A stretch of DNA of 64,000 nucleotides, taken from positions 128,001 to 192,000 of IMG/VR virus record IMGVR_UViG_3300033068_001989; one strand, 5' to 3'. This stretch comes from a virus. Taxonomy: Duplodnaviria; Caudoviricetes. The translations under genes were made by a program, and so were the position numbers. The notes under the pieces are model-generated. The model worked only from the letters and a program-made list of their open reading frames with translations, had not been told where the DNA came from and searched no databases. Numbering within the stretch: position 1 is the first letter of the stretch; every line of letters starts with the position of its first letter. Below, piece by piece: positions 43,589 to 63,103 of this stretch.

Positions 43589-45244
43589 TTAATTTGATAT
43601 TAGATTTCTTCTTAATAACTGACATCCATAATTTTTGAAAGAAACTGAACCTGATGCTGCTGTATTATTACCCATCCATATAAGTGGATAATATGTGGAA
43701 ACCCCAGTATTATAATCTGATGTTATATTAAGTGAGGTAACGGTCGTAGCTCCTGTAGAGTTTACTATTTTAGTTAGTTCTAGATTTATAGATGCAACTC
43801 CGGAGATTTTATAGATTCTAAGTTTATATGTTGATGAGGTTTCAGTTCCTAAAAATCCGGAACCAAGATCTAATGATGATGCTATCCCGCTGGCATCATT
43901 CCATATGAAATATAAATTTGCTGTTGCCTGTAACTTAGCAACACCTATTGAGTTTATCTGAGTTGTTGGTTCCACGTTTGTTGGTGCAACACCAGAATAT
44001 GCTGCTGATATACCAGCAAAGAACCTCTGTGCTCCATTGTTTGTATTTATTCTGAATTTATGGATATATTCAAATTCGAAATTTGTACCGATTTGCGTTG
44101 AGAATGGACTACCATAGATACCAGCAACCGAAGATGATGCTGAAGATGTTGTATATAATATGCATACCGGCTGCTCACTTACTGTGCTTACTGTTCCTAT
44201 ATTTGTTAAAGTACCGCCCCATCTCTGTGAAGAGTATGTTGTTGCGCCATCATCTGGAAGAATGAACGCATACTGATTTGTCATATTCTTTGAATATAAA
44301 TAATTATCAAAGGTTAGTTGTAAATCAGTCTGTGCTGACAATGTACCTGTTATACTTCCCCATGGACCTGCAATACCCTGAATCCCTGGATTTCCTGCTA
44401 TTGAAACTGTAAATCCTGTATATATACCGGATCCTGAGAATGTATCGGAGAGAAATAATAAACTATTACCCGTAAACGATGTAATAACCCCTTCCATCCA
44501 AACCAGACTATCAGCTATTGCTGTAGCTCTTATCCTAGTTCCGACCGTATATGCAGTTTGTGAAGAAGTTAAACTTAGATTCGAAAGACCTCTCGTTGAT
44601 ACACCTATGGTGAGAGATTGTGTGGTTGTAAAAAGTCCATCATAACCCAATCCTGTTGGACCTATTGGTCCAGGTACACCAACTGCACCTGCTAGATTGA
44701 TTGTCCAAGAATCGTAGGATATATCTGATTCTGAATTAACCTCGGTGCAAAATACATCAATTAGTCCACTTGTAGGAGAGTACGATATTATAGTCGCATG
44801 AAAATGGTTTATTGGTAGGGCATCTGGCGATATTATTACCGTTTGTGACGGTGAATATGCTAATCCAGTTCCAACGGTAAAAGAAACACTCGCACCTGTT
44901 GCAGGTATCGTTATAGTGTCGTTTGATGTTGTTGAATACCTATCCCCATTACTTCCTGTTGGACCAATAGGTCCAGTAGAACCAGTAGGACCAGTAGAAC
45001 CAGTAGGACCAATAGGACCAGTTGCTCCGCTAGGTCCAGTAGAACCAGTAGGTCCAGTAGAACCTGTTGCTCCTATAGATTCCGGATCAATCCAGAATGG
45101 TAGATAATTCCAAGGAGTAGCCCCGTCGCCGATTTTAATTTTTCCGGTGTCCGTTTCATATCCAAATTCGCCACTTAACAATATTGGATTATTTACTATC
45201 CATTTACCAGATGGATCTCTTCTTATCTGAACTCTAAATGCCAT
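43589..45244 (-). CDS. Collagen-like tail fibre protein with Mtd_N-like domain
   Basis: [29 protein letters not shown]; G-X-T repeats; beta-rich head. Confidence 0.8.
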
Positions 45245-45258
45245 TTTTCTTTAATTTT

Positions 45259-45888
45259 TTATGAAAGATCACCAAATAGTGTCCACGTATCAGCTTGATT
45301 TTTTATTAATGTTGCAACAGAGTATTGATATTTTAGATTTCTTAATCCTTGAGCAGAATTAATGGTAACTCCACCACCACCAGTAATACCAACTCCGCCA
45401 GTTCCACCTCTTGATACTAATATTCTTGTCCCTATCTCAAAATCGGTTGCGACGTCATTTTGTATTGTCAGATATGTCTGAGTACCCGATGTAATATTTA
45501 TTATCTTGTTTTTATCGCTAAGCTCTAGCGCATATGTTCCAGTTTGACCATTTGTCAATATGAGTGAAAAATCTAATCCGGTAGCTCCTGTTGGCCCAAT
45601 CGGACCTGTTGCTCCTGTTATACCTATCGGACCTGTTGTTCCAGTTGAGCCAGTAGCCCCAGTTTCACCAAGTCCTCCAGTAGGTCCAGTTATTCCGATT
45701 GAGCCAGTAGCTCCAGTTGGACCTGTGGCTCCATAATAATAATCAAGCTGGTTCCATGGTGTAATTCCGTCTCCAACTTTTAGTTTTCCGTTATCTGTTA
45801 CATATCCAGGTTCACCGGATAATAGAACTGGATTATTTGCTTGCCAGTTTCCTAATGTATCCCTTCTTAATAATATTCTATAAGCCAT
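45259..45888 (-). CDS. Short collagen-like fibre protein with Mtd_N-like domain
   Basis: Same N-terminal motif; G-X-T repeats; C-terminal WTLFGDL. Confidence 0.8.
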
Positions 45889-45934
45889 TTTGGTTTAATT
45901 TTTTTACTTCTTTGTATATATTCAAGTATTACGC

Positions 45935-46741
45935 CTAATTTCTTCTGGCTGCTAATACTTTATTGTAATCCATTCTTATCTTATTTGCTGATAATATATC
46001 TTTTATTTGAGCATCACTTTCGTTATACCATTTTTTATATTCTGGATCAGATCCCATTGGATCATAATTCATCTTATATGGCTGCTCGTCAACATCTATT
46101 GATTCGTTTTTGTCGTATGTTTTATAATCAACTATTAACTCTATCGTAGTGTTTCCAGTCTTTTGAAGCCAATCTTTATAAAATTGACCAAAATCCCTTA
46201 TTCCGGTAACTAAATCTATGCATCCGATAGATCCTGGTAAACTTCCGCCATGTAGAAAAAATCCACTTCTCCCGAGAGTATTGGTTCCTTTCTGTGGGAT
46301 TATTGAAAATCTAAAATTTCCCCAAGCTATTCTGGATGGATCCGTTATTTCTTTGAAGTTATCACTGCTTAGTGTTACTTCATTATCAGGAAGGAGAAAA
46401 ACAGTTTGCTTAGCTAATGTCAATTTTACAAAATTTTCATCGTTTCTCCATCTTGCGTTAAGATCTCTTTCCTCTGTTGGTCCTAATTTATATTTCCCTT
46501 GTGGTATTGGACCTTCAGCTTTTATTTTCGACCATTCGACTGGAGACATATTATATCTTCTCTTCCATGAATCTGGCTTAACATACCATTGATAATAGCT
46601 CCTTCCGGAACATGCTTTCCATGATTTAATAACTCTACCATTCTCTATGAAATCTAATTTATTTCCATTGAATAATAGATGAGCTGAATCCTGAGATTCT
46701 GCTTCATTGATAAATACCTTAAAGTTTAATATATTTTGCAT
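45935..46741 (-). CDS. Tlde1/DUF2778-like L,D-transpeptidase-fold protein
   Basis: GPIPQGKY and RSGFFLHGG..PGSIGCI catalytic His/Cys motif. Confidence 0.7.
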   Translation of the reverse strand: MQNILNFKVFINEAESQDSAHLLFNGNKLDFIENGRVIKSWKACSGRSYYQWYVKPDSWKRRYNMSPVEWSKIKAEGPIPQGKYKLGPTEERDLNARWRNDENFVKLTLAKQTVFLLPDNEVTLSSDNFKEITDPSRIAWGNFRFSIIPQKGTNTLGRSGFFLHGGSLPGSIGCIDLVTGIRDFGQFYKDWLQKTGNTTIELIVDYKTYDKNESIDVDEQPYKMNYDPMGSDPEYKKWYNESDAQIKDILSANKIRMDYNKVLAARRN

Positions 46742-46861
46742 TTATAGGTTTGTTTATAATCGAATACGACAAACTATATATTCAAAAAGTATCTAGCTAT
46801 TTTCACTATAAACAAAAAAGCCCAGATATTAATACCTGGGCTTTTTAACTATCATCGATTG

Positions 46862-47245
46862 TTATTTCTGTTTTTTAAGAATAGCTGCTTGTAATGCTTT
46901 TGGTAGGGTTTTTTGTTTAGCACTTAGTCCTTTTTTTGGTGTTTTTGTTGTATCACCATCATTTTCTTTTTTGTCGGCTGCTGCTTTTTTCATGGTCTCT
47001 TCCTTGTCTCCATCCTTATCAAGATCTAAAAAATCAGGCTTTGCCTTGCTTTTTGACTTATCTCCGGATTTAGCTTCCCTTTTAGCTTTCTGTTTATCTA
47101 GATAAGCCTTAAATCCTGCATTCATTTTTTCTGATATTTCATTTCCTGATTCCTCGTTAATGAAGTTCTCAAACGTTTCTATATTTTTCATATCGAATTT
47201 TTTATTTATAGTATATATTCGATTTATTTTCATAAAAAAAGTCAA
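46862..47245 (-). CDS. Small basic virion protein (start probably MKNIETF)
   Basis: IETFENFINE motif; KPDFLDLDKDGDKEE EF-hand-like motif; Lys-rich. Confidence 0.6.
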   Translation of the reverse strand: MTFFMKINRIYTINKKFDMKNIETFENFINEESGNEISEKMNAGFKAYLDKQKAKREAKSGDKSKSKAKPDFLDLDKDGDKEETMKKAAADKKENDGDTTKTPKKGLSAKQKTLPKALQAAILKKQK

Positions 47246-47266
47246 ATCTTAAGATTTGACTTTTTT
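47234..47266. terminator. Terminator ending tRNA array B
   Basis: A-tract GTCAAATCTT/AAGATTTGAC T-tract. Confidence 0.75.
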
Positions 47267-47267
47267 A

Positions 47268-47389
47268 ATCTGATATCCCGCTGCCACGCTAGCGAAGGTT
47301 TCTAATCCTATGCTCTATTAAGAGCTTTAAATCGAAATTAAATTCCCCGAGGCTTAATCTCGGCAAGGCCGAACTTAATCTTATCAGAT
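47268..47389 (-). ncRNA. Unknown structured RNA
   Basis: Closing stem ATCTGATA/TATCAGAT with internal hairpins. Confidence 0.4.
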
Positions 47390-47394
47390 CTTTG

Positions 47395-47520
47395 TGGGGA
47401 AGGGTGGATTCGAACCACCTATTATAACATATGAAATTAATTTTATCCTTCGAAGTAACTCAAAATCTTACTACTTATCAAAGAGAATGTTGATACGAGT
47501 GTCTTTTTTGTTGCTTCCCC
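47395..47520 (-). ncRNA. Y-RNA-like tRNA chimera (permuted module inside tRNA-like ends)
   Basis: GGGGAAG/CTTCCCC-A acceptor, GGTGG-TTCGAAT-CCACC T arm; module ACATTCTCTT-tgat-AAGTAGTAA..GAGTTACTTCG. Confidence 0.7.
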
Positions 47521-47618
47521 AATTATTTAAAAATCCAACCGGACGTTTCTGTACGCCCCATTCTCCGATTACGATCGATTACGGTGGTCCCTGTTATATC
47601 AGGCCCAGTTGGATTTAG

Positions 47619-47690
47619 TTGCGGGAGGAGGATTCGAACCTCCGACCTTTGGGTTATGAGCCCAACGAGCTGCCTCTGCTCTATCCCGCT
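47619..47690 (-). tRNA. tRNA-fMet(CAT)
   Basis: GGG/CCC anticodon stem, 1-72 mismatch. Confidence 0.88.
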
Positions 47691-47838
47691 ATTTATATTT
47701 TCTGTGTGGCGCCCAAGGGAGGCTTATAAAGTTGTATAAGCCACTCCTCAAACAAAGACATAGTTCTGGTTACCCTTGATATGCTTAGCACGGACTTCTA
47801 CCGGCATTTCCTTAATTTTACAATTAAAGCGATATTCT

Positions 47839-47915
47839 TGGCGGTTCCAGGGGGATTCGAACCCCCGACCTCCGCCGTGACAGGGCGGCGTTGTAACCAA
47901 CTCTACTATGAAACC
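47839..47915 (-). tRNA. tRNA-Asp(GTC), CCA encoded
   Basis: Cloverleaf, CCGCC-CTGTCAC-GGCGG. Confidence 0.92.
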
Positions 47916-47918
47916 GTT

Positions 47919-48046
47919 TAAATAAGGGAATACTAAAGAAAGTATTTAATTTTCCGACTGGACTCGAACCAGCTACCCATTGTGAGTGAAACAATTGATC
48001 TAACCAAATGATCTACGAAGTAACTCTCTTAATTACCACTTATTTA
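47919..48046 (-). ncRNA. Y-RNA-like tRNA chimera (module on acceptor stem, loop TTCACTC)
   Basis: AAGTGGTAA..GAGTTACTTCG-[D, anticodon and T arms]-..GTATTCCCTT. Confidence 0.75.
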
Positions 48047-48130
48047 TACTTTAGCCGATATGCTTCATTGCAATTTAATTTCATGCTAATTTGAAACTTG
48101 CAGGGATTTCTCCACTCTCTCGGTTCTTTG

Positions 48131-48200
48131 TAGCGTAACGTGGACTCGAACCACCCCCCAAGCTTATGAGACTTAGATGCAACCTTTACACCTTAACGCA
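48131..48200 (-). tRNA. tRNA(CAT), Met or Ile2, divergent
   Basis: CTCATAA loop, GTGG-TTCGAGT-CCAC; imperfect acceptor stem. Confidence 0.6.
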
Positions 48201-48204
48201 ATAT

Positions 48205-48852
48205 TTATTGTTTTTTGATCCTTCCAAATTCCCATCCTTTTGACAAATGTTCATTTAGATCTATTTCTTTTATCTTCTTATCTGTCTGTCCATCATTGAT
48301 CCATCTTGTGCCAAATTGAGAGTTTTTTTCTCCTTTTTGGTTCAATGAATTCTTAAGACCCACTGATAATTTTGCCTCTTCCGTATGAGATCTTCCTGAG
48401 AAGGTGTCATACTTATATTTGCCATCTCTGTGATTTTTTTTAGCCAATTCAGAGAGATGCTTTCTTAAATTTTCTTTAAAATCAGAATCGTTGTTTACTT
48501 TTATCGAAAATGCTCTAGCACCAGATTCTGTAAATTTCTTAAGATGCTCTATACCACTAATACCTCCGCCTCCACCTGGCTGTAAATTCATACACATTGG
48601 ATCGTTTAAAAGATCCTCGTTAACTAATTCGATTTCTCTCTTTCTTAAAGATTCTCGATCTTCAAAATATTCAAGAATTTCCTTAGTGTGTGCTTCCTTA
48701 CCGTGCTTTCTTATCGATTCTCTTATTCTTCTACCACTTCCCATGTAACCATCATCTAAGTTATGCGTAGAGTGAATCCCTATGTAATATTTACCATTTT
48801 TTGTATTTGTTATTTTATACGAATAATGATATTTATATTTTTTTCTAGCCAT
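48205..48852 (-). mobile_element. Free-standing GIY-YIG homing endonuclease (Seg-like, NUMOD3)
   Basis: YSYKITN..YYIG.H..YMGSG, HTEE motif; inserted in the tRNA array. Confidence 0.85.
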
Positions 48853-48906
48853 CTCTATACCCTATTTTTATCTATATATCAAAAATAGGGTACGAAATCG
48901 CGGGCG

Positions 48907-48978
48907 TAGCCCGTAGGGGAATCGAACCCCTCTTACCAGGATGAAAACCTGGCGTCCTAACCGATAGACGAACGGGCC
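48907..48978 (-). tRNA. tRNA-Glu(TTC)
   Basis: Cloverleaf, CCAGG-TTTTCAT-CCTGG. Confidence 0.92.
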
Positions 48979-48983
48979 AAATT

Positions 48984-49129
48984 TAGGAAATAATGATGGA
49001 GTACCCGATATCGCTCCAATCTTTACTGCTTAATAATAGTTTTACAGTGCACCGGCAGAGGGTGTGTGAATCCTATAGAGCTGAAGGTGGCGTCGACACC
49101 TTGTCTTCAGCGGAAACCATTATTTCCTA
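48984..49129 (-). ncRNA. Unknown structured RNA
   Basis: 12-bp closing stem TAGGAAATAATG/CATTATTTCCTA with internal hairpins. Confidence 0.45.
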
Positions 49130-49777
49130 TTTTTTATTTCTTCCTAGTAACCATCCATCATTCAGATATTCGTTAAGGTCGCATCCCTTAATCTTTTTAT
49201 CCTCCTGATTTTTATTTACCCATCTTGTACCAAATTGTGAATTTTTATTACCAATTCTATTTATAGAATTTTTTTCACCTATTATTTTTTTGGTATCTTC
49301 TGTATGTTTTTTATCTTTGAAAGTTGGAGATCTCTCTGAATATGCTCCGTCCTTCCATGCTTTTTTAATCGTCTCGGAGGTCAACTTTTTAAAATGGAGT
49401 CTAAAATCCGCATCATTTTTTAACTTCTCTGAAAATCCCCTTCCCCCCGAGGAGCTGCATTTTTTCATATGCTTCTCGTTTATAAACCCTCCACCACCAC
49501 CGGGCTGTAGATTCATGCACATTGGATCATTTAATAAATCCTCATTAACTAATTCAATTTCTCTTTTTCGTAGGGATTCTCTGTCTTCGAAATATTCCAA
49601 AATTTCCTTGGTGTGTGAATCCTTTCCATGTCTTCTTATTGAATTTGTAATCCTTTTACCACTTCCAAAATAATCATCATCAAGATTATCTGTAGAATGC
49701 ATACCTATATAATATTTACCATCCTTTTTGTTGGTTATCTTATAGATATAGTGAAACCTCTTTTCTTTTCTTGCCAT
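49127..49777 (-). mobile_element. Free-standing GIY-YIG homing endonuclease (Seg-like, NUMOD3)
   Basis: YIYKITN..YYIGMH..YFGSG, HTEDTK; paralog of 48205..48852. Confidence 0.85.
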
Positions 49778-49831
49778 TTCTATACTTTAATTTAGATTAT
49801 GTATCTAAACTAAAGTACGAAATCGCGGCTG

Positions 49832-49905
49832 TGGTCCCTGTAGGGCTTGAACCTACGACCCCCTGATTATGAGTCAGGTGCTCTAACCAACTGAGCTAAG
49901 AGACC
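49832..49905 (-). tRNA. tRNA(CAT), probably Ile2 (reads ATA after lysidine modification)
   Basis: Cloverleaf, CCTGA-CTCATAA-TCAGG; Ile2 identity inferred from GGTCTCT acceptor and presence of separate fMet and Met genes. Confidence 0.75.
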
Positions 49906-49914
49906 GTTAATAAA

Positions 49915-50135
49915 AAAAGAAATATCCAAACCAATTTCACATCCCTTTACTCTTTGGTTTACCAGTCTTGCGGACTGTGCTGGTCATCTTCCGTTCTTTT
50001 CTCAAAATCTTTAGGTGTTCTTACTATCTCTATCAGATCACTGGGATTTTTGTTGAATTGAGTTTATTATGATCGGTCTATTGCGTCAGGGTATGGCAAC
50101 CAATAGACTTGTACCTCTCCAAAAATATTTCTTTT
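49915..50135 (-). ncRNA. Unknown ~220-nt structured RNA
   Basis: Closing stem AAAAGAAATAT/ATATTTCTTTT; internal hairpins; lies just after a promoter and boxA-like element. Confidence 0.45.
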
Positions 50136-50180
50136 AATTCTTTATGTTAATGAACGTTGTTTCTTTGTTTATTATTGTAT

Positions 50181-50214
50181 TGCAAAAGTATGATATTCTT
50201 TCGGGATAAAAAAA
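50181..50214 (-). promoter_or_regulatory. Early promoter inside array B
   Basis: TTTTTTTATCCCGAAAGAATATCATACTTTTGCA. Confidence 0.7.
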
Positions 50215-50267
50215 TTATTTTTGATATTTTTTTGAATTTTTTCAAAAATAATTTTTTATCACCTTTG

Positions 50268-50341
50268 CCGAGATAACGGGAATCGAACCCGTTTCGCACG
50301 CCGTGACAGGGCGGCATCCTTCGCCAGTGGACCTTACCTCG
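50268..50341 (-). tRNA. tRNA-Asp(GTC)
   Basis: CTGTCAC loop, ACGGG-TTCGATT-CCCGT. Confidence 0.8.
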
Positions 50342-50350
50342 AATATTTTG

Positions 50351-50440
50351 CGGAGGGTGAGGGGCTCGAACCCTCGCGACCTATCACTAGATCCTACCTG
50401 TTTAGCAAACAGGCCTCTTCACCAACTTGAGTAACCCTCC
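50351..50440 (-). tRNA. tRNA-Ser(GCT)
   Basis: Cloverleaf with long variable arm, G73. Confidence 0.92.
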
Positions 50441-50494
50441 GAATACAAGCCCAGAAAATTGCGCATGCTAGCAGAGGCGTTCTGGGAATTGTTG

Positions 50495-50581
50495 TACCCC
50501 GAGCCGGAGTCGAACCGGCACGCTCCTTTCGGAACACCAGATTTTAAGTCTGGGGCGTCTGACCATTTTCGCCATCGGGGC
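50495..50581 (-). tRNA. tRNA-Leu(TAA)
   Basis: CCAGA-CTTAAAA-TCTGG, long variable arm. Confidence 0.92.
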
Positions 50582-50588
50582 ATTAATT

Positions 50589-50680
50589 TGGTACAGATGG
50601 CGGGAATCGAACCCGCGTTTGATGCTATCTCAACAACCGCTACGAGTATAGAAGATATAAGCTTCCATCGGTACATCTGC
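50589..50680 (-). ncRNA. tRNA-like RNA without a D stem, CCA encoded
   Basis: GCAGATG/CATCTGT-ACCA, GCGGG-TTCGATT-CCCGC; irregular long hairpin in place of D and anticodon arms. Confidence 0.6.
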
Positions 50681-50688
50681 TAATTTTG

Positions 50689-50763
50689 GGTGACTGGTGG
50701 GGTTTGAACCCACGACCTCCTGAACCACAATCAGGCGTTCTAACCAGCTGAACTACAGCCACC
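50689..50763 (-). tRNA. tRNA-His(GTG)
   Basis: Cloverleaf with G-1 and C73. Confidence 0.92.
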
Positions 50764-50818
50764 ATGTTACGATCTATAAGGCCAGATCGTCAGCCAGTGC
50801 CTTCTCCCTAGGGAGATG

Positions 50819-51097
50819 CTATTTATTATCTCTATTTTTACCTAGATGATATCCGTCACAGAATATACATTTATAAACACTGAAATATTTACCATGTTTC
50901 CTTTGCATTGAATCTGCTGCCTTTCTTGCTGATTCCTTTGTTGGAAATCCCTGTTTTTCCTTTCCGTCCATTCTATAATGGCTTCTTTTATCAAATAATC
51001 CTAATGCATTACCTGTTATAAAGAAATTACGAAATGCTCTTTTTAAGGGAAGCTGATCCTTCAAACCAAGAATCAAATTCTTTAATTTAATTGGCAT
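50819..51097 (-). CDS. Hypothetical basic protein (CxxC..H)
   Basis: YKCIFCDGYHLG. Confidence 0.65.
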   Translation of the reverse strand: MPIKLKNLILGLKDQLPLKRAFRNFFITGNALGLFDKRSHYRMDGKEKQGFPTKESARKAADSMQRKHGKYFSVYKCIFCDGYHLGKNRDNK

Positions 51098-51533
51098 TTT
51101 CTTTTGTTTTATTAAATTCGTCCGCGGTTACTTTTTTTATCGGTGTAAATAAAGCGAACCCATCGTCGTCTTCGAAGTGATTGCATTTATCGATGAAATA
51201 GTTTCCCATCTTAAATCTCCAATATTCAAAAACGTTCATAGTTTCATTCCATCTTCCGATTTTACCTCTTCTATGATCACCTAGATAGAAAGCACCATCT
51301 TCGAGTTCATTCTTAGGTATTGCACCAGCTTTAATGAGTCTTGGTATATAGTATTCTTTATACTCCTTCTCGTTAACTTTTGGTATTTCTGGTACGTCTT
51401 GCGGAATTTTAAAAGTCTTAAGATTATCCCATCTTTTTCTTCTAAGCTCCTCAAAATTCTTTTTATCAATTTCCCTTTTTTCCTCAAGGAACTTTTTGAT
51501 CTGTTCGATTTTTTGTTTTTTGTCTGGTTCCAT
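51087..51533 (-). CDS. Hypothetical protein
   Basis: ORF within the tRNA array. Confidence 0.65.
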   Translation of the reverse strand: MEPDKKQKIEQIKKFLEEKREIDKKNFEELRRKRWDNLKTFKIPQDVPEIPKVNEKEYKEYYIPRLIKAGAIPKNELEDGAFYLGDHRRGKIGRWNETMNVFEYWRFKMGNYFIDKCNHFEDDDGFALFTPIKKVTADEFNKTKENAN

Positions 51534-51551
51534 GACTATGTTTTTAATTAG

Positions 51552-51634
51552 AGGTACCTGTCAGATTCGAACTGACGTGAGATTTCTCTAGCGGTTTTGC
51601 AGACCGCTCCTTTCAACCACTCAGGCAAGGTACC
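51552..51634 (-). tRNA. tRNA-Cys(GCA) with long variable arm
   Basis: GCGGT-CTGCAAA-ACCGC, U73, variable arm TAGAGAAATCTCAC. Confidence 0.85.
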
Positions 51635-51642
51635 GTGTTTAG

Positions 51643-51715
51643 AGCCTAAGACAGGGGTCGAACCTGCGACCTGCTGATTACAAATCAGCTGCTCTACCAA
51701 CTGAGCTACTTAGGC
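51643..51715 (-). tRNA. tRNA-Thr(TGT)
   Basis: Cloverleaf. Confidence 0.93.
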
Positions 51716-51723
51716 ATTTTTTG

Positions 51724-51809
51724 AGGAGACCAAGGGGATCGAACCCTATGCAGTTGCCCGCACCCGATGCTTTCCAGGCATGGACTATCACCGTTTAGTA
51801 TTGATCTCC
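51724..51809 (-). tRNA. tRNA-Ser(GGA), divergent
   Basis: ATGC-CTGGAAA-GCAT, long variable arm. Confidence 0.75.
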
Positions 51810-51923
51810 ATTGAGGGTTGACATATAGAATCTTTCCTATTTTCTGCGGTATAGGTACCATCATGGATTCCGTTGACCGATTCGTCTTTATAACCCCATA
51901 CGGAACAAGCAGGGTAACCTAAG

Positions 51924-52011
51924 CGGAGGGAGTGGGATTCGAACCCACGGGAGTAATTAGCTCACACAAGATTTCAAGTCTAGGCGCTTTTGACCACTTG
52001 CGCACCCCTCC
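51924..52011 (-). tRNA. tRNA-Ser(TGA)
   Basis: CTTGAAA loop, long variable arm, G73. Confidence 0.9.
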
Positions 52012-52042
52012 AATTTACTTTTACAATATTTCAATGAACAAT

Positions 52043-52075
52043 AAAAAAGGTCTCCTTTTTAGAGGAGACCTTTTT
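52043..52075 (-). terminator. Attenuator terminator upstream of tRNA array B
   Basis: GGTCTCCT-ctaaaa-AGGAGACC followed by T tract. Confidence 0.85.
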
Positions 52076-52097
52076 GATATTATTATATGTCTTAATA

Positions 52098-52190
52098 TCA
52101 ATACTCTCTCCTCATTACAATAGACGATTCACAAGTTGAACTCGTGTGATCTAAATGTAATGTATCTAATATGTACTGTATTTGTGACAT
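52098..52190 (-). CDS. Leader peptide B, 30 aa (MSQIQYILDTLHLDHTSSTCESSIVMRREY)
   Basis: Manual translation; A-rich initiation context; contains antiterminator GAGGAGA; codons match array B. Confidence 0.75.
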   Translation of the reverse strand: MSQIQYILDTLHLDHTSSTCESSIVMRREY

Positions 52191-52201
52191 GATTTTTATT
52201 T

Positions 52202-52272
52202 TTATAGATTTATATATCTAATTGATTTTAATATTTTATGCAAATTTAATGAAATGTTTCGAATAAAAAAAA
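52202..52272 (-). promoter_or_regulatory. Tandem early (TAAATTTG) and late-type (GATATATA) promoter block, copy B
   Basis: 52202-52248 is identical to 63034-63080. Confidence 0.8.
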
Positions 52273-52297
52273 TTATTTTTTATTTTTTTTTCAATAT

Positions 52298-52573
52298 TTA
52301 TTGAATTTCGTTTAATTGCTTAGGTATAAATTCACCAGTTTCTGTGATGTCTGCATATCTAGAAACAATATCACTCAATCCTCTTAGTAATTCCTCGAGG
52401 TTTTTTTCTTTTTCTGTTGGTCCATTTGTTGAACTGAAATTAGGTACAGCAATTTTTTGTTTAACTAATCTATCAAGATCAGATTTCAATTCATCAGCTA
52501 CGGATTTTTCATCACCGTAGAATTTTTCGTTAATTTCCGATTTATCAGAATCGTAATGTTTAAGATATCTCAT
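52298..52573 (-). CDS. Hypothetical, probable virion protein
   Basis: YLKHY..INE N-terminal motif. Confidence 0.55.
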   Translation of the reverse strand: MRYLKHYDSDKSEINEKFYGDEKSVADELKSDLDRLVKQKIAVPNFSSTNGPTEKEKNLEELLRGLSDIVSRYADITETGEFIPKQLNEIQ

Positions 52574-52578
52574 CCTTT

Positions 52579-54069
52579 TTATATAAATTTGAAGTCCTCG
52601 AGTGATCTAAGATACTCTAGATTGTAATTTTCCTTTAATTCCTTAATTTTCTTAGAATCTTTATCATCCACAATCGCAGGAACTGAATTTATTGTTTTTA
52701 ATCCAACCGATACTGCTTTCGGTAATGGTCCCATTAGTCCAGATGATGATAATTTATCTATAGTTTTTGAAGTTTTAGGATATTCCGTTGCTAAATCTCC
52801 TAAAAAATCTATCATTGGTTGAGCTATTGGTTTTATATAAGTTCCTACTAATTTCTTAATAACATCCAAAGCAGGTCCCAAGAAAGACTTAAATGCATTA
52901 GCTATTATTTTAGCAGCTGGTGTAACCGCAGATTTTATGAAATTTGATATTGCTTTTGAGAATTTTTCAGGAAGTGATATAAGGAATTGAAACAATTCTG
53001 ATATTTTTCCGCCAGCATAAATTATACCATCAAATACTTTACCTAAAAGGCCTTCACCGACCATCAGGAATATTGTCGATATTGTTGTCGCTGCAAGAGC
53101 AGATCCACCTGATCCCATTATCGCTCCGATGTTCTTTGCTGAATTTGCTCCAATTTTACCAACTAGTTTTGATGCTCCGTGTGCAAGAAAATGCTCTGTA
53201 CTATGAGCAAATTGTCCAGCAAATGTACCTGCCCATTTTTCGGAAGCTTTAAGAGATGCCGTGCTTGCTGCCGCTATACCAGGTATTGCTGCTTTTGGTG
53301 CCATTATAACATCATTTAGACCAAGTAAGATGGAACAAGAACCAGCTATTACTAGCGGTGCGCCGACAGCTAAACTTTTTTTGGTCTTTTCTAACTTGTT
53401 CATTTCAATTTCGGATAGATGTGACCACGCTTTTTTCATTTTATATACACCTATTCCTATTTCAATTGCACCTGCAATTCCAAGTAGAACCGGACCTAAT
53501 ATCTGACCAGCTGCTGGTATTAAGGGTGTAACTGCTGCAGTCATCTGTAGTACTATTGCTACTGTTGTCCAAAAATTTGAGCTAGTTGTTATTTCTTTTA
53601 TAGCAGATACTATTCTTTTTGTAAATTTCCAAACTCTTTTTGCACCATCGGATATACTATTCCATATATTTGCACTCTTAGATTTAACTAAATCCACTGC
53701 TGATTTAGCATTAGATTTAACTTTATCCCAAGCTGCTGACATATCGTCAAGAATTCCTTCATTTATAGCATGCATCGTATAATTATCGATTATAAATGCT
53801 GATCCATTTTTAAATAAAACCGTTCCACTATCACTCTCAAGCATCAATATCTTCTCATCATCGTTGAACCAGTCTTTCTTATTCTCGTAAAGCATTCCTA
53901 ATTCGTACATAGCATACGATTTTTCCAATAGCATCTCCTCGGACTCAGATTCAAATACCTTAGATTCAAACATATTAGAAAATTCTGGCAATGTTAATTT
54001 CACCATTATGTCTTCACTTAACTTTCCGAAATTGCTCGAGGAAAGAAATCCATCATATTTATTAATCAT
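52579..54069 (-). CDS. Hypothetical virion protein with hydrophobic Gly/Ala helices
   Basis: Several FE/INE motifs in the N-terminus; membrane-like segments. Confidence 0.6.
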   Translation of the reverse strand: MINKYDGFLSSSNFGKLSEDIMVKLTLPEFSNMFESKVFESESEEMLLEKSYAMYELGMLYENKKDWFNDDEKILMLESDSGTVLFKNGSAFIIDNYTMHAINEGILDDMSAAWDKVKSNAKSAVDLVKSKSANIWNSISDGAKRVWKFTKRIVSAIKEITTSSNFWTTVAIVLQMTAAVTPLIPAAGQILGPVLLGIAGAIEIGIGVYKMKKAWSHLSEIEMNKLEKTKKSLAVGAPLVIAGSCSILLGLNDVIMAPKAAIPGIAAASTASLKASEKWAGTFAGQFAHSTEHFLAHGASKLVGKIGANSAKNIGAIMGSGGSALAATTISTIFLMVGEGLLGKVFDGIIYAGGKISELFQFLISLPEKFSKAISNFIKSAVTPAAKIIANAFKSFLGPALDVIKKLVGTYIKPIAQPMIDFLGDLATEYPKTSKTIDKLSSSGLMGPLPKAVSVGLKTINSVPAIVDDKDSKKIKELKENYNLEYLRSLEDFKFI

Positions 54070-54112
54070 TTTATAGATTTTTTTCTTTTATATATCCAAA
54101 TTACAAACAACA

Positions 54113-54140
54113 AAAAAGCCATTCTATATGAATGGCTTTT
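54113..54140 (-). terminator. Intrinsic terminator after Ro60
   Basis: AAAGCCATTC/GAATGGCTTT followed by T tract. Confidence 0.75.
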
Positions 54141-54160
54141 ATAATTTATGCAAAATATTA

Positions 54161-55741
54161 TTAGATAACAATAGCTTCGATTTCTCTTAAAATCGCTTTT
54201 GGATCGATCTCAGCTTTTTTGATCATCTCGTAGATATCAGCAGAGTAACCAAAAAGTTGAACTAATTTGTTACCTGGTTTGAACATGGTTGTACCATATC
54301 CTTGAATATCAACAGTGTAGATGAAAGGTTCGCCATGTGCAGATTTGTAGGATTGGAAAGAACTGTTTGTAACGATTCTATCACCACCTTGTAAATCTGA
54401 TATGATGAAGATACGATCATATTTACCGCTTTTTTGTAAAGTTGAGAAGATTGAGCCGAAGTCAGTACCATGACCAACTCTACCTTGCAAACTTAAACAT
54501 GTATTTTTGATCGTATTGATGCTATCGCCAGGATTGTATCTGATACCTTCTGTTGTTGTCGCAAATTGGTATAAATCTGCACCGATACCTTTTGCTAACG
54601 TTGCTCCAATAAGAGCAGCTTTATCAATACAATGTTTGTTTATAGCTTTACCATTCATGGTAACTCCATGTCCCATTCCGTGCATAGATCCAGATGTATC
54701 AATAACAACCGCTGTTCTGCCATGTGAGAATAATTCGAGCAAGTTTGGTATTGCTAATTCGTAAGCTCTATTCAAAGCAGTAACGAATGGTCTAGACGCA
54801 GAAGCACTAGTTTCTTGTAAAAGAATCTCCAAAGCAATATCTATTTGGTGAGGAAAGACCAAAGATTTTCTGATCAATTTCTCATCGATTAAAAGCTCAC
54901 ACGCACCACTAACTAATTCAGAATTTGAACTTGTGTTGATGATGTTTCTTAAATTACGAAGCAATGCCAAGTAACCAATTTTTCTAGTTTTAATCAATTC
55001 AGCATAGTTGCTTTCTTTAGCTTGTGTCAATTCAACCTCTGCTTGGGCTTTAGTGATTTCACCGGATTTAACTTTTGCAGCAACTTCCTGTCCTGATTTT
55101 GTGTTTTTGTCCTCGACAGTGTTGAATTGTTTTAACTTACCAGTCATAAGTTCTTTGAAAACCCCCTCCATTTGTGGTGTTGTTGGTTTTGGACGAACCA
55201 AGTTAACAACATCAACAAGTGAAACTGCTTTCCCTTTACCTTGATATTTAGCTAATTCGTATGCATCTGCTGATTCTAAAGCTGCTTTAAAGCCTTTCTT
55301 CATTGAGTTAGGTAATGGTTTACCAGGATTGAAGTGTTGGTAAGCTGCGATAATCTCCAATACGTCATCTAAACGGTATATAATACCACCAGTTTTAGCA
55401 TTCTTATCTCTTTTTGAGAAGAATCTTCTACCTATAGCTGATCCGGATAAATGTTTAACTAATGATACAGATCCGAAATGTGTTACTGATCTTTGACCAA
55501 CAACAGTTCTCGCGTATACAAGAGCTTTAGCAACGAATTCGATATCTTTCTTGGACAATTCGTCGATAAGTTGAACAAATCTGTTCTCTCTATCTGATAA
55601 TTTTTCATAGTATGAATTATCCAATCCTGTGGTAAGAATAGCAATTAATTCTAATTTTGGATCATACTTCACACCGGTACCACCTTGATGGTTTGTAACT
55701 GTCTCAACAGTTCTTTTTACTTTTTGATTGTAACGTGACAT
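54161..55741 (-). CDS. Ro60/TROVE RNA-binding protein
   Basis: YELAKY, ALLRNLRN, FPHQI TROVE motifs; C-terminal vWA MIDAS DTSGSM..GTD..ISD. Confidence 0.9.
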   Translation of the reverse strand: MSRYNQKVKRTVETVTNHQGGTGVKYDPKLELIAILTTGLDNSYYEKLSDRENRFVQLIDELSKKDIEFVAKALVYARTVVGQRSVTHFGSVSLVKHLSGSAIGRRFFSKRDKNAKTGGIIYRLDDVLEIIAAYQHFNPGKPLPNSMKKGFKAALESADAYELAKYQGKGKAVSLVDVVNLVRPKPTTPQMEGVFKELMTGKLKQFNTVEDKNTKSGQEVAAKVKSGEITKAQAEVELTQAKESNYAELIKTRKIGYLALLRNLRNIINTSSNSELVSGACELLIDEKLIRKSLVFPHQIDIALEILLQETSASASRPFVTALNRAYELAIPNLLELFSHGRTAVVIDTSGSMHGMGHGVTMNGKAINKHCIDKAALIGATLAKGIGADLYQFATTTEGIRYNPGDSINTIKNTCLSLQGRVGHGTDFGSIFSTLQKSGKYDRIFIISDLQGGDRIVTNSSFQSYKSAHGEPFIYTVDIQGYGTTMFKPGNKLVQLFGYSADIYEMIKKAEIDPKAILREIEAIVI

Positions 55742-55770
55742 GATTATAATTGTTTATTCGTTTATATTAT

Positions 55771-55967
55771 AAAATTGAGTTATCGGAAAGATAAAGCATA
55801 TAGACTAGGTCAAATGCAAGATCAACGTCAAAGACCTTCTTCTATTGCAAAGACAATGACAAAAACTAAGTCTCTTTCGCTAGCCAATTATCTGCCTAGT
55901 GGTAAAGATTTCTCTTTCTCTATGGCTTTCAGTAACTTGTCTAGCTATTGAGTTCTATCTCAGTTTT
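55771..55967 (-). ncRNA. Candidate structured RNA with hexamer-periodic tract
   Basis: Closing stem AAAACTGAG/CTCAATTTT; GTTTTT-GTCATT-GTCTTT..GTCTTT-GACGTT-GATCTT-GCATTT. Confidence 0.4.
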
Positions 55968-56157
55968 ATTTATTTTTATAGAAGAAGCGGAGTGATGAGA
56001 GTTCCCGAAGGATCCTCTCTGATTGCTGTATATGATTAATAGTCATTTATCTTATAAGATAATGGCCAGGAGCCATTAATTAAAGGACTTTATCTCTCCG
56101 AATCAAAGCATCAGGGGAATCGGCTTTTGCTTACCCCTTCAGCACCTCAATTTATTT

Positions 56158-57081
56158 TTATTTTTCTAGTTGTTTCAAAAATTCATCAACAACTGGTTGG
56201 AATCTAGGATCAATCTGAATCTTAAGATTTACAGCTTCACCGATTCTATTTTGACGCTCTGTTTCAAAATCAAGACTTGCTTTCTTGTAGTTTGCTAACC
56301 AAGCTTCTCTCTTTTTTGTGTATTCGTTCATCGCTAGTGAATTCTTTTCATTAGCTTCTGCTTGAGCATCAGCATTGATTTTAGAAATCCTTGCATTTTC
56401 CTTAGTTACAGCATTCTTAACCTTCGATTTGAAATAATTAACTCTTTGCTCGTAACTTCTATGAAGAGCTGCCAACTCTTCGTGTGTTTTTAACAACTCC
56501 TCAGGTTTGTGATGCACATTAACTTTAATAGGAGTTTTCTTTCCTGTTTCGATTTCCATAAACTCAAGAAGCTGAATTTTAGGTAATTCTGATCTCAGAC
56601 GATCTAATGTTCCACCCTTATGAATAAATTGTCCTATATGTGAAGCATAAGCCTCCGCCTCGATGAATTCGTTATATTCATCAATTGTTAGTTGATTCCA
56701 GCCCCAATCCTCTGCAACTTGTACCAGAACTTCAGGTTGAATATTAGGTTCTCTTTCAGGTGAAGGATTTTGATCCTCATAATCAAAATATTCTCTCTTG
56801 ATTCCGTTTATCAATTCGTCTTTGGCTTTTATATTCTCCATTAGAAAAGCCTGTGTTGCATGCAACCTTGCTTTACTTTTAAGAAGTTCAACAACATCTT
56901 TAGGTAAAGGTTTTGCAGCGGTTAAATTGTGATCCTCTTTGGATATCCTTATCGTTTTTGATGCGTTATTAATATCTGCTAAAGCTGCAGTAATATCCTT
57001 TGATCTTTGGTTACAAAGATTCGATATAGATTGAGCTTGAGACATTGATAATCCTTTTGATGCTAATGAATTTCTTTTCAT
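56158..57081 (-). CDS. Conserved-looking coiled-coil protein upstream of Ro60
   Basis: 307-aa helical ORF with A.HIGQFIH motif. Confidence 0.7.
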   Translation of the reverse strand: MKRNSLASKGLSMSQAQSISNLCNQRSKDITAALADINNASKTIRISKEDHNLTAAKPLPKDVVELLKSKARLHATQAFLMENIKAKDELINGIKREYFDYEDQNPSPEREPNIQPEVLVQVAEDWGWNQLTIDEYNEFIEAEAYASHIGQFIHKGGTLDRLRSELPKIQLLEFMEIETGKKTPIKVNVHHKPEELLKTHEELAALHRSYEQRVNYFKSKVKNAVTKENARISKINADAQAEANEKNSLAMNEYTKKREAWLANYKKASLDFETERQNRIGEAVNLKIQIDPRFQPVVDEFLKQLEK

Positions 57082-57125
57082 GATTTCTAATTTTTGTTTT
57101 TATATTTTACTTTAAATTTCTACAA

Positions 57126-57165
57126 TAAAAAAGGGATTAAGTCGCTTGGCGTCCTAATCCCTTTA
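57126..57165 (-). terminator. Terminator ending array A and the Y-like cluster
   Basis: AAAGGGATTA/TAATCCCTTT followed by T tract. Confidence 0.7.
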
Positions 57166-57173
57166 TAAAACTA

Positions 57174-57314
57174 ACAGAGAATGATGTAAGAAGTGTGAAC
57201 AATTTAATGTCTGATTTTCATTCAGATGACTTAACCACTTGTCTAAATTTCCAGTTTAGCGGAAACTATCGGAGTCGAACCGATGTGCGATGTAACTTCT
57301 ATACTTACTACTGT
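57174..57314 (-). ncRNA. Y-RNA-like circularly permuted tRNA (break in variable loop, anticodon GAA)
   Basis: Order is T arm, closed acceptor (AGTTTCC/GGAAATT), D arm, anticodon arm TCTGA-ATGAAAA-TCAGA, all inside the shared module. Confidence 0.78.
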
Positions 57315-57322
57315 CGTATGTT

Positions 57323-57482
57323 TTATAAGGGAATGATGTAAATAGCGTTTTTTCTAACGTGCTCTACCAACTGAGCTATTCCCCCCAAATTTTTAATTTG
57401 TTTAGTGGGGGAAGATGGATTCGAACCACCGACACCGTGCTTTCAATGCATACGAAGTAACTATTTTACTGACCACTTATAA
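57323..57482 (-). ncRNA. YrlA-like RNA (T-acceptor-D order, module on anticodon stem)
   Basis: GGTGG-TTCGAAT-CCATC, TTCCCCC/GGGGGAA closed by a linker, GCTC-AGTTGGTA-GAGC; module AAGTGGTCA..GTTACTTCG/CATTCCCTT. Confidence 0.8.
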
Positions 57483-57490
57483 TATGTTTT

Positions 57491-57625
57491 TTGTAAGGGA
57501 ATGTTCGGGTGAGTTTCAATGGATGTTTTTGCTGGAGTTGAACCAGCTACCTAAAGTTTAAGAGACTCTCGCTCTACCAAGTGAGCTAAAAAACGAAGTA
57601 ACTCATATTCCGTTACCACTTACAA
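57491..57625 (-). ncRNA. Y-RNA-like tRNA chimera (module on acceptor stem, anticodon CTT)
   Basis: D, anticodon (AGAGT-CTCTTAA-ACTTT) and T arms enclosed by the module. Confidence 0.78.
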
Positions 57626-57711
57626 TAATACTTTTTCAATGAACGTTTTGTGATTTTTATATGGAGGGAAATCCTCTTTGTTTCATAAAAATCAATATTT
57701 TTTTAAAATTT

Positions 57712-57877
57712 AACGATCTTAGAGATATTGGGAAGGGAATGTTTAGAAAGGGATGCTAATAGTTTTTGCGGGAGTTGAACCCGCGACCTTAAATACCAAA
57801 AATTTACGCCCTACCAACTGGGCTAAAAAACGAAGTAACCTTTCAATTTACCACTAACCAATATTTCTAAGAACGTT
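57712..57877 (-). ncRNA. Y-RNA-like tRNA chimera (module on acceptor stem, anticodon TTG)
   Basis: D, anticodon (TAAAT-TTTTGGT-ATTTA) and T arms enclosed by the module plus a long basal stem. Confidence 0.78.
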
Positions 57878-57881
57878 TTTG

Positions 57882-57955
57882 TAGGCAAGGAGAGACTCGA
57901 ACTCTCGACCTTCGCGGTATCAGCGCGACGCTCTAACCAACTGAGCTACCTGCCT
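57882..57955 (-). tRNA. tRNA-Ile(GAT)
   Basis: Cloverleaf. Confidence 0.92.
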
Positions 57956-57966
57956 ATTTTATTTCG

Positions 57967-58037
57967 AGATCCCGGAGGGATTCGAACCCCCGTCTTCAGA
58001 TCCGTATTCTGAAATTCTTCCGCTGAACTACGGGACC
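57967..58037 (-). tRNA. tRNA-Arg(ACG)
   Basis: TCAGA-ATACGGA-TCTGA. Confidence 0.85.
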
Positions 58038-58041
58038 TTAT

Positions 58042-58209
58042 TTAATTCTCTGCGCCTCCATCTACAAGTAGCAATAAATGTGTTTATCCTTTCGCTGAAT
58101 CGCCCTATAGACTCAGTTGCAGCTAATCAGCACTTAGATACCGCCTTCCTTTCTCACGGATTAAGGTTACACTTTGGAAATTCACCTCTACGGACACACA
58201 GAGAACTAA
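58042..58209 (-). ncRNA. Unknown ~165-nt structured RNA
   Basis: Closing stem TTAGTTCTCTGTGT/GCGCAGAGAATTAA. Confidence 0.45.
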
Positions 58210-58212
58210 TTC

Positions 58213-58386
58213 TTATAATCTGTTTCGAAGAATCTCTATCTCCTTGTTAAGTCTTTTGATATCAGAATCGCTCAAATCGACTTTTTTATCTCTTGTACCT
58301 TTTTCGGTTTTAACGCCGCTTTTCAATTGTTCCTCCAACATAGACAATGCTCTTGCTTGTCTAGATCTTCTTTGGGTTGTTGCCAT
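58213..58386 (-). CDS. Small early protein, 57 aa (MATTQRRSRQ...ILRNRL)
   Basis: Manual translation; directly downstream of the promoter at 58410; below the ORF-track cutoff. Confidence 0.65.
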   Translation of the reverse strand: MATTQRRSRQARALSMLEEQLKSGVKTEKGTRDKKVDLSDSDIKRLNKEIEILRNRL

Positions 58387-58409
58387 TTTTGTATGTTTAA
58401 TTATTATGA

Positions 58410-58443
58410 TGCAAATATATGATATCCTTTCGAGATAAAAAAA
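58410..58443 (-). promoter_or_regulatory. Early promoter
   Basis: TTTTTTTATCTCGAAAGGATATCATATATTTGCA. Confidence 0.72.
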
Positions 58444-58905
58444 TTAATTTGCAATTTTTTCAATAATAATTTCCTTAACCTTAACTGGACTCGCCATACC
58501 TGGAAACTTTTTATTAAAAGCACCGATAACTTTACCTGTTAAAACCTGTGCATTTAATCCAAGACCATCCATTTCTGAAAGTAGTTCCATAACAGCGGAT
58601 GTTATTTCTGAATCCTCCATTTGTTTAGGAAGATAAGATTCAATCGGTTTCAACTCAGCTGTTTCTTGTTCTACAAGATCCATTCTTCCGGCCTTTGTGA
58701 ATTCCTCTACTGATTGTTTTCTTTGTTTGATTGTGCTTATAACAATCTTTAAAACATCAGCATCACTAAGCTCTGTTCCAGCTGGACCAGCTTTCTCAGC
58801 TTCTAGTATTTTGGACTTCAGACCACTTAAAGCACTTTTTGCTACTGTGTCTTTTGATTTGAATGCTGTAATATAATCAGCATTGATTTTCTCCTTTAGT
58901 GTCAT
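58444..58905 (-). CDS. GatB/YqeY domain protein (start at MTLKEK)
   Basis: LKEKINAD..AFKSKD..KQRKQS.E.F.KAGR.DL..E..E....YLPKQM. Confidence 0.85.
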   Translation of the reverse strand: MTLKEKINADYITAFKSKDTVAKSALSGLKSKILEAEKAGPAGTELSDADVLKIVISTIKQRKQSVEEFTKAGRMDLVEQETAELKPIESYLPKQMEDSEITSAVMELLSEMDGLGLNAQVLTGKVIGAFNKKFPGMASPVKVKEIIIEKIAN

Positions 58906-58920
58906 GTTTTCAATTTTTAG

Positions 58921-58989
58921 TGGAATATTGGGACTCGAACCCTGCCTCCCACTGTTTAGTGGTTGCACATCCGCTTGTGCTTTTATCCC
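58921..58989 (-). pseudogene. Degenerate tRNA-like element
   Basis: GGGATA/TATTCC acceptor, GCAC/GTGC D stem, TTCGAGT loop; anticodon loop not 7 nt. Confidence 0.5.
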
Positions 58990-59053
58990 GTGGCCGGGGT
59001 TTATGGATATTTCTTAATCACCTCCAATGGGCCGACCCTTGGTGACAAATTAT

Positions 59054-59443: not shown

Positions 59444-59464
59444 TTCGAAATGTTTAAAAATTAG

Positions 59465-59554: not shown

Positions 59555-59649
59555 AATTTCATTTGAAGCTCACAAAAGACCCAACTTTAAGCTCAAAAAT
59601 GCTCGAAATTGAGCTTCATTTTGAGTTTTTGTGAGCTTCATTTCCTATT

Positions 59650-59842: not shown

Positions 59843-59845
59843 TTG

Positions 59846-60877: not shown

Positions 60878-60885
60878 AAATTTTG

Positions 60886-62824: not shown

Positions 62825-62863
62825 AAAAAAAAACTCCAGATCTTTTAAGATCTGGAGTAAAAA
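62825..62863 (-). terminator. Attenuator terminator upstream of tRNA array A
   Basis: ACTCCAGATCT-taaa-AGATCTGGAGT followed by long T tract. Confidence 0.88.
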
Positions 62864-62893
62864 TATTTAATGCTTATTTGACTAGTTCTTACA

Positions 62894-63022
62894 TTAAATT
62901 ATATCGTGACCTCCAGATCCCTTGCTGTACCCATTATACCATTTGGCAATGCCCACCTGATTAAAGGGTGCAACGCTCTGCGGCATAAACGGTTTTACAT
63001 TATTTCGGAAAGTTGTTTTCAT
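62894..63022 (-). CDS. Leader peptide A, 42 aa (MKTTFRNNVKPFMPQSVAPFNQVGIAKWYNGYSKGSGGHDII)
   Basis: Manual translation; A-rich initiation context; contains antiterminator GATCTGGAG; codons match array A. Confidence 0.78.
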   Translation of the reverse strand: MKTTFRNNVKPFMPQSVAPFNQVGIAKWYNGYSKGSGGHDII

Positions 63023-63033
63023 TGTTTTTTAAA

Positions 63034-63103
63034 TTATAGATTTATATATCTAATTGATTTTAATATTTTATGCAAATTTATGGAAAAGTTTCGAATAAAA
63101 AAA
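63034..63103 (-). promoter_or_regulatory. Tandem early and late-type promoter block, copy A
   Basis: 63034-63080 is identical to 52202-52248. Confidence 0.8.

Follow-up and report, generated by a model that had tools for sequence, protein, structure and literature searches.

How phages control the expression of their tRNA genes is, to our knowledge, essentially unknown; these genes are usually discussed only for codon usage or for escape from tRNA-targeting defences. The question is raised in a concrete form by a tRNA array of an uncultured phage that is preceded, on the same strand, by a very short open reading frame (ORF), leader B, and an intrinsic terminator. Leader B is probably the sensor of a ribosome-mediated transcription attenuator, which would tie the transcription of the tRNA array to the speed of decoding; no expression data are available. 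Since the mini-gene is written in codons read by the tRNAs downstream of it, the phage probably makes this block of tRNAs only when decoding is slow.

The window, i.e. the whole stretch of 64,000 nucleotides that was analysed (34% G+C), comprises bases 128001-192000 of a single 207,751-bp contig from the phage. All of its 34 tRNA genes are encoded on the minus strand, and GIY-YIG homing endonuclease genes, tail-like genes and a TROVE/Ro60 gene are also present; its source is clearly a large phage. A close cultured relative was not found in the phage collection, either by DNA or by the Ro60 protein. IMG/VR contains near-identical contigs and progressively more distant relatives. The gene for the TROVE/Ro60-like RNA-binding protein (54161-55741; PHROG 850, Pfam TROVE) ends a second tRNA transcription unit, unit A, and a sub-threshold Rfam match to YrlA (Y-RNA-like) lies upstream of it at 57355-57438. 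A tRNA-like gene at 59464-59554 has an irregular anticodon loop ('tRNA-???' according to ARAGORN; 39 bits with the Rfam tRNA model). Two minus-strand genes, 43589-45244 and 45259-45888, contain nine-base periodic repeats (44919-45748) that translate into collagen-like Gly-X-Y tracts.

On the minus strand, the parts of unit B are arranged in the order promoter, ORF (52190..52098), terminator, boxA-like motif and 13 tRNA genes. A 91-codon gene ends at 52298, upstream of the promoter. The tRNA genes, found with ARAGORN and Rfam, form array B (47618..52011, minus strand), which starts with tRNA-Ser(tga) at 52011 and continues with Ser-gga, Thr-tgt, Cys-gca, His-gtg, Leu-taa, Ser-gct, Asp-gtc, Ile2-cat, Glu-ttc, Val-cac, Asp-gtc and an initiator-like cat tRNA. 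They are interspersed with small ORFs and two GIY-YIG endonuclease genes. The latter, SegE-like paralogues at 48205-48852 and 49127-49777 between array B tRNAs, share 78% identity over 300 nt. Between tRNA-His and tRNA-Leu, a short segment (50589-50640) matches the ends of the tmRNA model. The next strong minus-strand terminator past the putative attenuator (46815..46846) is the likely end of transcription unit B.

The unit B promoter (52241..52277, minus strand) is comprised of an A/T-rich tract (52277-52256) and the -7 box TAAATTTG (52248-52241), which fits TAnnTTTG, the sequence that we take to be the -7 box of the Bacteroidota sigma-A promoter consensus. Five similar promoter copies are present in the tRNA region (repeat family D8). 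Copies without a leader ORF are located inside the arrays at 50231-50168 (before Ile2 and Glu), 58460-58397 and 62318-62255. Since these internal promoters could drive distal tRNAs independently, the control of distal array B by the attenuator may be incomplete. A 260-nt stretch that precedes tRNA-Ile2 (50170-49906) has unexplained content. A third array (Arg-tct, Leu-tag and Leu-gag), just beyond the window, has a promoter and no leader. The -7 box and the 5' UTR of unit B together form a 47-bp block (52202..52248, minus strand) which, in the alignment, is identical to 63034-63080 in front of the leader of unit A (repeat D10). A 30-mer from this block matched 11 IMG/VR stretches, and a leader unit is found in all of those that reach the downstream sequence.

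Leader ORF B (52098..52190, minus strand) starts with ATG and has 30 codons followed by TGA. The initial annotation of this locus had listed its codons 7-23 as a continuous match to array B, and the reading is exactly confirmed: every codon in this sensor zone (52122..52172, minus strand) is readable by array B, whose first ten distinct anticodons suffice for all 17, each being called at least once. The zone covers eight amino acids with one to three codons per amino acid. Leu is encoded by TTA only and Ser by TCA/TCG, TCT and AGT, as had been described, and the earlier figure of 22 matching codons out of 30 is borne out when the start ATG is counted (21 of 29 without it). The match depends on two assumptions. 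One is that ACT is read by tRNA-Thr(UGU), the sole Thr tRNA of the phage, via extended wobble, and the other is that the CAT tRNA at 49831 is Ile2. The latter identity, on which the initial annotation had made its count conditional, is supported by the best full-length matches of the gene (49831-49905), which are E. coli tRNA-Ile genes. The match that was opened is ileX adjoining mug, which carries a CAT anticodon and has the acceptor stem, the anticodon loop and the T arm in common with the phage gene; ileX is the lysidine Ile tRNA of E. coli. As for other CAT tRNAs of the phage, the one at 47618 is initiator-like, with a mismatched 1:72 pair and three G:C pairs, and the one at 60885 resembles elongator Met.

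About 40% of the codons in the long ORFs of the phage are readable by array B, and among equal-length windows drawn from these ORFs a run of at least 17 has a probability of 6e-4. At least 21 matches in 29 codons are expected with a probability of 2e-3 in windows of real phage genes, and a 17-residue window that holds all eight amino acids with P = 1.7e-3. In a six-frame scan of the whole genome the run ties for second longest; further long array-B runs occur near genome position 69 kb, within a single Ser/Thr-rich gene, and at 3.8 kb. These single-locus chance values are respectable but not overwhelming, because the locus was chosen after the fact, and the weight of the argument rests on the comparative evidence.

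The intrinsic terminator (52044..52075, minus strand), which was detected independently of the initial annotation, has a 13-pair stem with a GC-rich core and a T-run at 52048-52043, and is situated 31 nt before the first tRNA. Its 5' arm (52068-52062) doubles as the 3' strand of an antiterminator. The 5' strand of the latter, GAGGAGA (52107..52113, minus strand), consists of the last base of codon 26 and codons 27-28 (AGG AGA), which confirms that the Arg-Arg codons that do not match the array are the antiterminator itself. A 9-bp hairpin with the TGA stop codon (52074..52101, minus strand) is enclosed by the antiterminator helix, and a 7-8 bp version of it is kept in relatives despite changes in the loop. 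The 7 + 9 bp structure predicted earlier, in which GAGGAGA pairs with UCUCCUC and encloses the stop-codon hairpin, proved to be the computed MFE fold (-17.9 kcal/mol) as long as the nascent RNA lacks the 3' arm of the terminator, and the same fold is obtained for every 5' limit imposed as a stalled ribosome. When the complete 3' arm is present, the terminator and the hairpin are favoured by about 4 kcal/mol. With a ribosome at the stop, modelled by leaving free only the RNA that begins about 13 nt beyond the stop codon, the terminator is the sole possible fold. The completed terminator being thermodynamically favoured, the switch rests on assumed co-transcriptional kinetics, and the kinetic competition between the two folds is inferred. 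Fold prediction gives the antiterminator likewise for the naked, untranslated leader RNA. Termination would thus require efficient active translation of the leader; both this dependence and the translation itself are inferred and have not been shown.

The complementarity between the ORF end and the terminator was examined by pairing the last 48 nt of each ORF with its own terminator 5' arm and comparing the duplex with mononucleotide shuffles. For leader B the duplex has an energy of -10.9 kcal/mol (p = 0.033), which is modest alone. An earlier control, in which any MFE pairing of the terminator 5' region was compared with that of shuffles, was dropped as uninformative, because an unpaired arm nearly always pairs. 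The matched run of codons stops at codon 23, 11 nt short of GAGGAGA, and, given the general size of the ribosome footprint, a stalled ribosome would begin to cover GAGGAGA at about this point. The footprint geometry on this RNA is inferred. The last one or two sensor codons are near GAGGAGA, and a ribosome stalled on them would partly cover the antiterminator strand. An imperfect hairpin inside the coding region (52113..52162, minus strand) is present in the MFE folds. It is predicted to be no competitor of the antiterminator, and the leader families do not have it in common; it may, by inference from the folding model, act as a pause or synchronising hairpin for RNA polymerase.

In the proposed mechanism, transcription would begin at the Bacteroidota-type promoter near 52241-52277, and the 30-codon ORF would be translated as RNA polymerase moves ahead. 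A ribosome that translates smoothly would reach the TGA and cover GAGGAGA together with the 5' half of the stop-codon hairpin, upon which the terminator 52075-52044 would fold and transcription would stop before the tRNAs. A ribosome slowed in codons 7 to about 22 would leave GAGGAGA free to pair with the newly made 5' arm of the terminator, the terminator would be blocked, and the polymerase would continue past the boxA-like element into the 13-tRNA array. The net result would be a negative feedback, by which the output of array-B tRNAs rises when the decoding capacity for those codons is short. The physiological trigger of such a response is inferred.

The same phage contains a sister unit with a complementary leader. 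Unit A (62833..63080, minus strand) consists of the 47-bp block (63080-63034), a leader and a terminator (62858-62833, minus strand) different from that of unit B, and is followed by tRNA-Pro at 62805. Leader ORF A (63022..62894, minus strand) has 42 codons, its antiterminator strand is at 62921-62911, and the antiterminator, stop-codon hairpin and terminator are nested as in leader B. It is almost wholly composed of residues served by its own array, namely Pro, Trp, Gln, Lys, Tyr, Asn, Phe, Gly, Met, Ala, Val, Arg and Ile, with Ile encoded by ATT and Arg by CGA, as the tRNAs of array A (gat and acg) require. When the count is restricted to codons that one array can read and the other cannot, the ratio of A to B codons is 31:8 in leader A and 6:20 in leader B (Fisher p = 9e-6).

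Unit B is found in five distinct versions among close relatives, and the leader peptide is identical in all of them. The 93 nt of the ORF contain four variable sites, all of them third-position A/G exchanges that are synonymous and keep the same decoding tRNA, a pattern that supports translation of the ORF only indirectly. The 22-nt spacer after the ORF contains five variable sites, and the terminator has changes in its loop as well as one that is compatible with G:U pairing. These data bear on the possibility that the terminated transcript of about 190 nt is a structured non-coding RNA, such as an sRNA or a decoy, in which the ORF is incidental, or that the attenuator RNA also acts in trans. 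The leader region does fold better than shuffled sequences, with the terminator (z = -5.9) as well as without it (z = -3.1), and the internal hairpin can also accommodate two of the four synonymous changes; the confinement of all four to third codon positions, in contrast, has a chance of only about 0.012, and an in-frame match of 17 codons to the downstream tRNAs would be meaningless for a non-coding RNA. Leaders of different phages, moreover, have neither a sequence nor an internal fold in common, and what they have in common is the coding logic and the competition with the terminator only. A trans-acting attenuator RNA has a precedent in Sinorhizobium rnTrpL (PMC6614838), and such a role would supplement attenuation rather than replace it. 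A non-coding function as the explanation of the locus is very unlikely.

More distant relatives contain leaders that are unrelated in sequence to those of the window phage, and each of them follows its own array. In L007, L008 and L009 (Ro60 about 60% identical) the tRNAs are partitioned differently. One array begins with Ser-tga and continues with Gln, Pro, Phe, Asn, Val, Ile, Ser-gct and His, and the leader at L007 9345-9464 is built from the residues of this array and a few Met and Gly. The other begins with Trp, followed by Glu, Asp, Ala, Lys, Arg, Gly, Thr, Leu and Tyr, and its residues make up the leaders at L008 1157-1252 and L009 554-661. The within-genome Fisher test of leader against array gives p = 2e-6 for L008 and p = 1e-4 for L009. 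In L005 and L006 (Ro60 identity 76% and 67%) one large array stands behind one leader family, and the L005 leader, 46 codons long, has every one of the 20 amino acids (P = 0.0035); the array that it precedes is near-complete. L017 (Ro60 identity 31%) has two small leader units: one leader, before tRNAs for Ser, Ser, Val and His, contains a run in which all residues but one Met are Ser, Val or His, and the other has a Phe/Pro-rich stretch (six of seven residues) before tRNAs for Pro and Phe. The unrelated families thus come to two for L007/L008/L009, a single one for L005/L006 and another two for L017. When one unit from each of six unrelated families was taken, the true pairing of leaders and arrays had the highest total match of all 720 permutations.

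The nested antiterminator design is found in eight further units, which represent five other leader families and a second member of the A family. Duplexes between the ORF end and the terminator arm are better than shuffles at p<0.05 in eight of ten units, a ninth has p = 0.08, and the values of these nine range from 0.001 to 0.08. The pairing is weak in the A-family unit A3 of L026 (p = 0.42). Combined over the six families, the complementarity has p = 7e-8. The recurrence of the design in leaders of unrelated sequence suggests strong selection and possibly repeated invention, as judged by comparison of genomes alone.

Several features of tRNA genes in the relatives were observed in passing. 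Genes resembling tRNA-Ser(tga) at L017 7537-7630 and L008 14633-14725, which are the first genes after the attenuator in these phages, have an enlarged, unusual D region and were missed by ARAGORN. In L003, a tRNA with the anticodon tta (a TAA suppressor according to ARAGORN) is present at 7918, where the window phage has tRNA-Ile/Gln. Another phage, CcrColossus of Caulobacter, was viewed at its Ro60 locus alone; this locus contains tRNA-like elements as well as one tRNA-Gln behind an annotated terminator, and no convincing leader was found there.

The short interval between the unit B terminator and the first tRNA contains a boxA-like motif (52028..52041, minus strand) in which 10 of 12 core bases match. 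A motif close to GTTCTTTGACAT is present directly before the first tRNA in most related arrays, whether an attenuator is present or absent (for example at L007 9527-9540, L013 ~381-394 and L021 ~14184-14196). A scan of reference genomes with the exact 14-mer consensus returned mostly Bacteroidota. In all four rRNA-operon contigs checked, three of Pedobacter and one of Flavihumibacter, the 14-mer occurs within the 16S-23S spacer, where it follows the spacer tRNAs and precedes the 23S gene by 85-160 nt; this spacer is the classical location of the rrn boxA. The phage motif is probably an rrn-type boxA borrowed for tRNA operons, an identification made by sequence and position without binding data, and its likeness to the boxA of Bacteroidota is further support for a host from this phylum. 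Polymerases that have passed the attenuator may then become resistant to termination across the long untranslated array. The position of boxA after the terminator fits such a design, in which only the polymerases that escape the attenuator acquire this resistance. A literature search with the boxA-like sequence string found nothing relevant. The resemblance to processive rrn antitermination through NusB/NusE is in the sequence and position of the Bacteroidota spacer boxA, whereas in unit B the motif deviates at 2 of 12 core positions and, as an accessory that follows the switch, does not do the sensing.

Two explanations that dispense with codon-specific stalling can be weighed against this whole body of data. 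According to the first, the mini-gene encodes a small phage protein, the terminator simply ends the gene, the tRNAs are transcribed from other promoters, and the likeness of the codons is a coincidence or a general bias. A perfectly conserved peptide with synonymous changes only is what any functional small protein would be expected to display, and internal promoters are indeed present in the arrays. A general codon bias, however, cannot explain why two leaders split the amino acids in the way their arrays do, nor why unrelated leaders follow differently partitioned arrays. The recurrent complementarity of the ORF end to the terminator arm would be left unexplained, a PHROG search with five leader peptides gave no family match, and there is no promoter-like element between the terminator and the first tRNA, the motif there being that of the rrn spacer boxA, an RNA element. 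This explanation is highly improbable.

According to the second, translation of the leader gates the array through general ribosome availability or initiation, as a shut-off or timing switch, or through protection from Rho. The predicted formation of the antiterminator in untranslated RNA means that a general loss of translation should open the gate, and the boxA just downstream suggests a concern with Rho or with terminators in untranslated RNA. A general sensor would need neither a codon content that follows each array nor synonymous changes that keep the same decoding tRNA, and as a replacement for codon-specific stalling it is unlikely; as an additional input it is compatible with the sensing of array-B codons. 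The proposal of the initial annotation, a leader-peptide attenuator that senses array-B codons, is supported by the synonymous-only conservation, by the complementary unit A and by the unrelated leaders that follow their arrays, and remains a computational inference.

The mechanism of attenuation by a leader peptide has been described for pheL (PMC3082878). Unit B resembles the attenuators of amino-acid operons in that a short ORF is rich in regulatory codons, the regulated genes are preceded by an intrinsic terminator, and the 5' strand of the antiterminator is covered once the ribosome reaches the stop codon; in both, the availability of charged tRNA is sensed via ribosome speed, which in unit B is a proposal. 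It has the structural features by which an attenuator is recognized, namely a codon-enriched leader ORF, a terminator before the genes and an antiterminator that is formed from the 3' end of the ORF and excludes the terminator. It does not fit with respect to the class of genes regulated, which are tRNA genes, homing endonucleases and small ORFs and not genes for biosynthesis, transport or aminoacyl-tRNA synthetases. Enterobacterial attenuators that respond to one amino acid or several include trpL, hisL, leuL and the multivalent leaders of ilvGMEDA (Ile/Leu/Val) and thr (Thr/Ile). The leaders of amino-acid operons contain a run of codons for one to three amino acids, whereas leader B contains one to three codons for each of eight. 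Instead of the classic 1:2 / 2:3 / 3:4 scheme, unit B apparently has two competing structures and a nested stop-codon hairpin, and, unlike the enterobacterial examples, it is viral and belongs to a Bacteroidota-type host with Shine-Dalgarno-independent initiation. Membership in two Rfam families was considered and rejected: Phe_leader reached 30.8 bits against a threshold of 55, mostly from the terminator, and STnc230 was a sub-threshold match that rested on the terminator.

T-box riboswitches, which precede synthetase and amino-acid genes of Firmicutes, also tie tRNA charging to a choice between terminator and antiterminator in a 5' leader. They need no translation and bind one uncharged tRNA directly, by means of a specifier codon and the T-box sequence, whereas unit B has a conserved in-frame ORF with 17 matched codons, and no Rfam T-box match was found in 44000-64000 even at E <= 1. 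A supposed precedent, an attenuator in front of E. coli pheV, was discarded, because the K-12 sequence has a promoter directly before the tRNA and lacks both a leader ORF and a terminator there. Full-text literature searches on leader peptides, attenuation and phage tRNA genes did not turn up any such control of tRNA genes. What is new is the proposed application of an attenuator of the known leader-peptide kind to tRNA genes.

It is possible, as a tentative extension that has yet to earn even odds, that codon-matched leader attenuators are a general means by which large phages operate their tRNA genes as self-limiting operons that respond to demand. Each array would be switched on when the usable tRNA pool for its codons falls, for example upon host shut-off or upon cleavage of host tRNAs by anticodon-nuclease defences. 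Should this general reading be true, the leader would be a tripwire that summons replacement tRNAs, and attenuation of the trp/his type would have been adapted to regulate the supply of tRNA, with the decoding capacity for up to 20 amino acids sensed at once. Leader units would offer compact, portable parts for synthetic circuits that report tRNA availability, and a sequence signature by which the transcription units of uncultured giant phages could be annotated. For the phages themselves, each leader would give a direct and testable read-out of the codons that the phage treats as limiting in its host.
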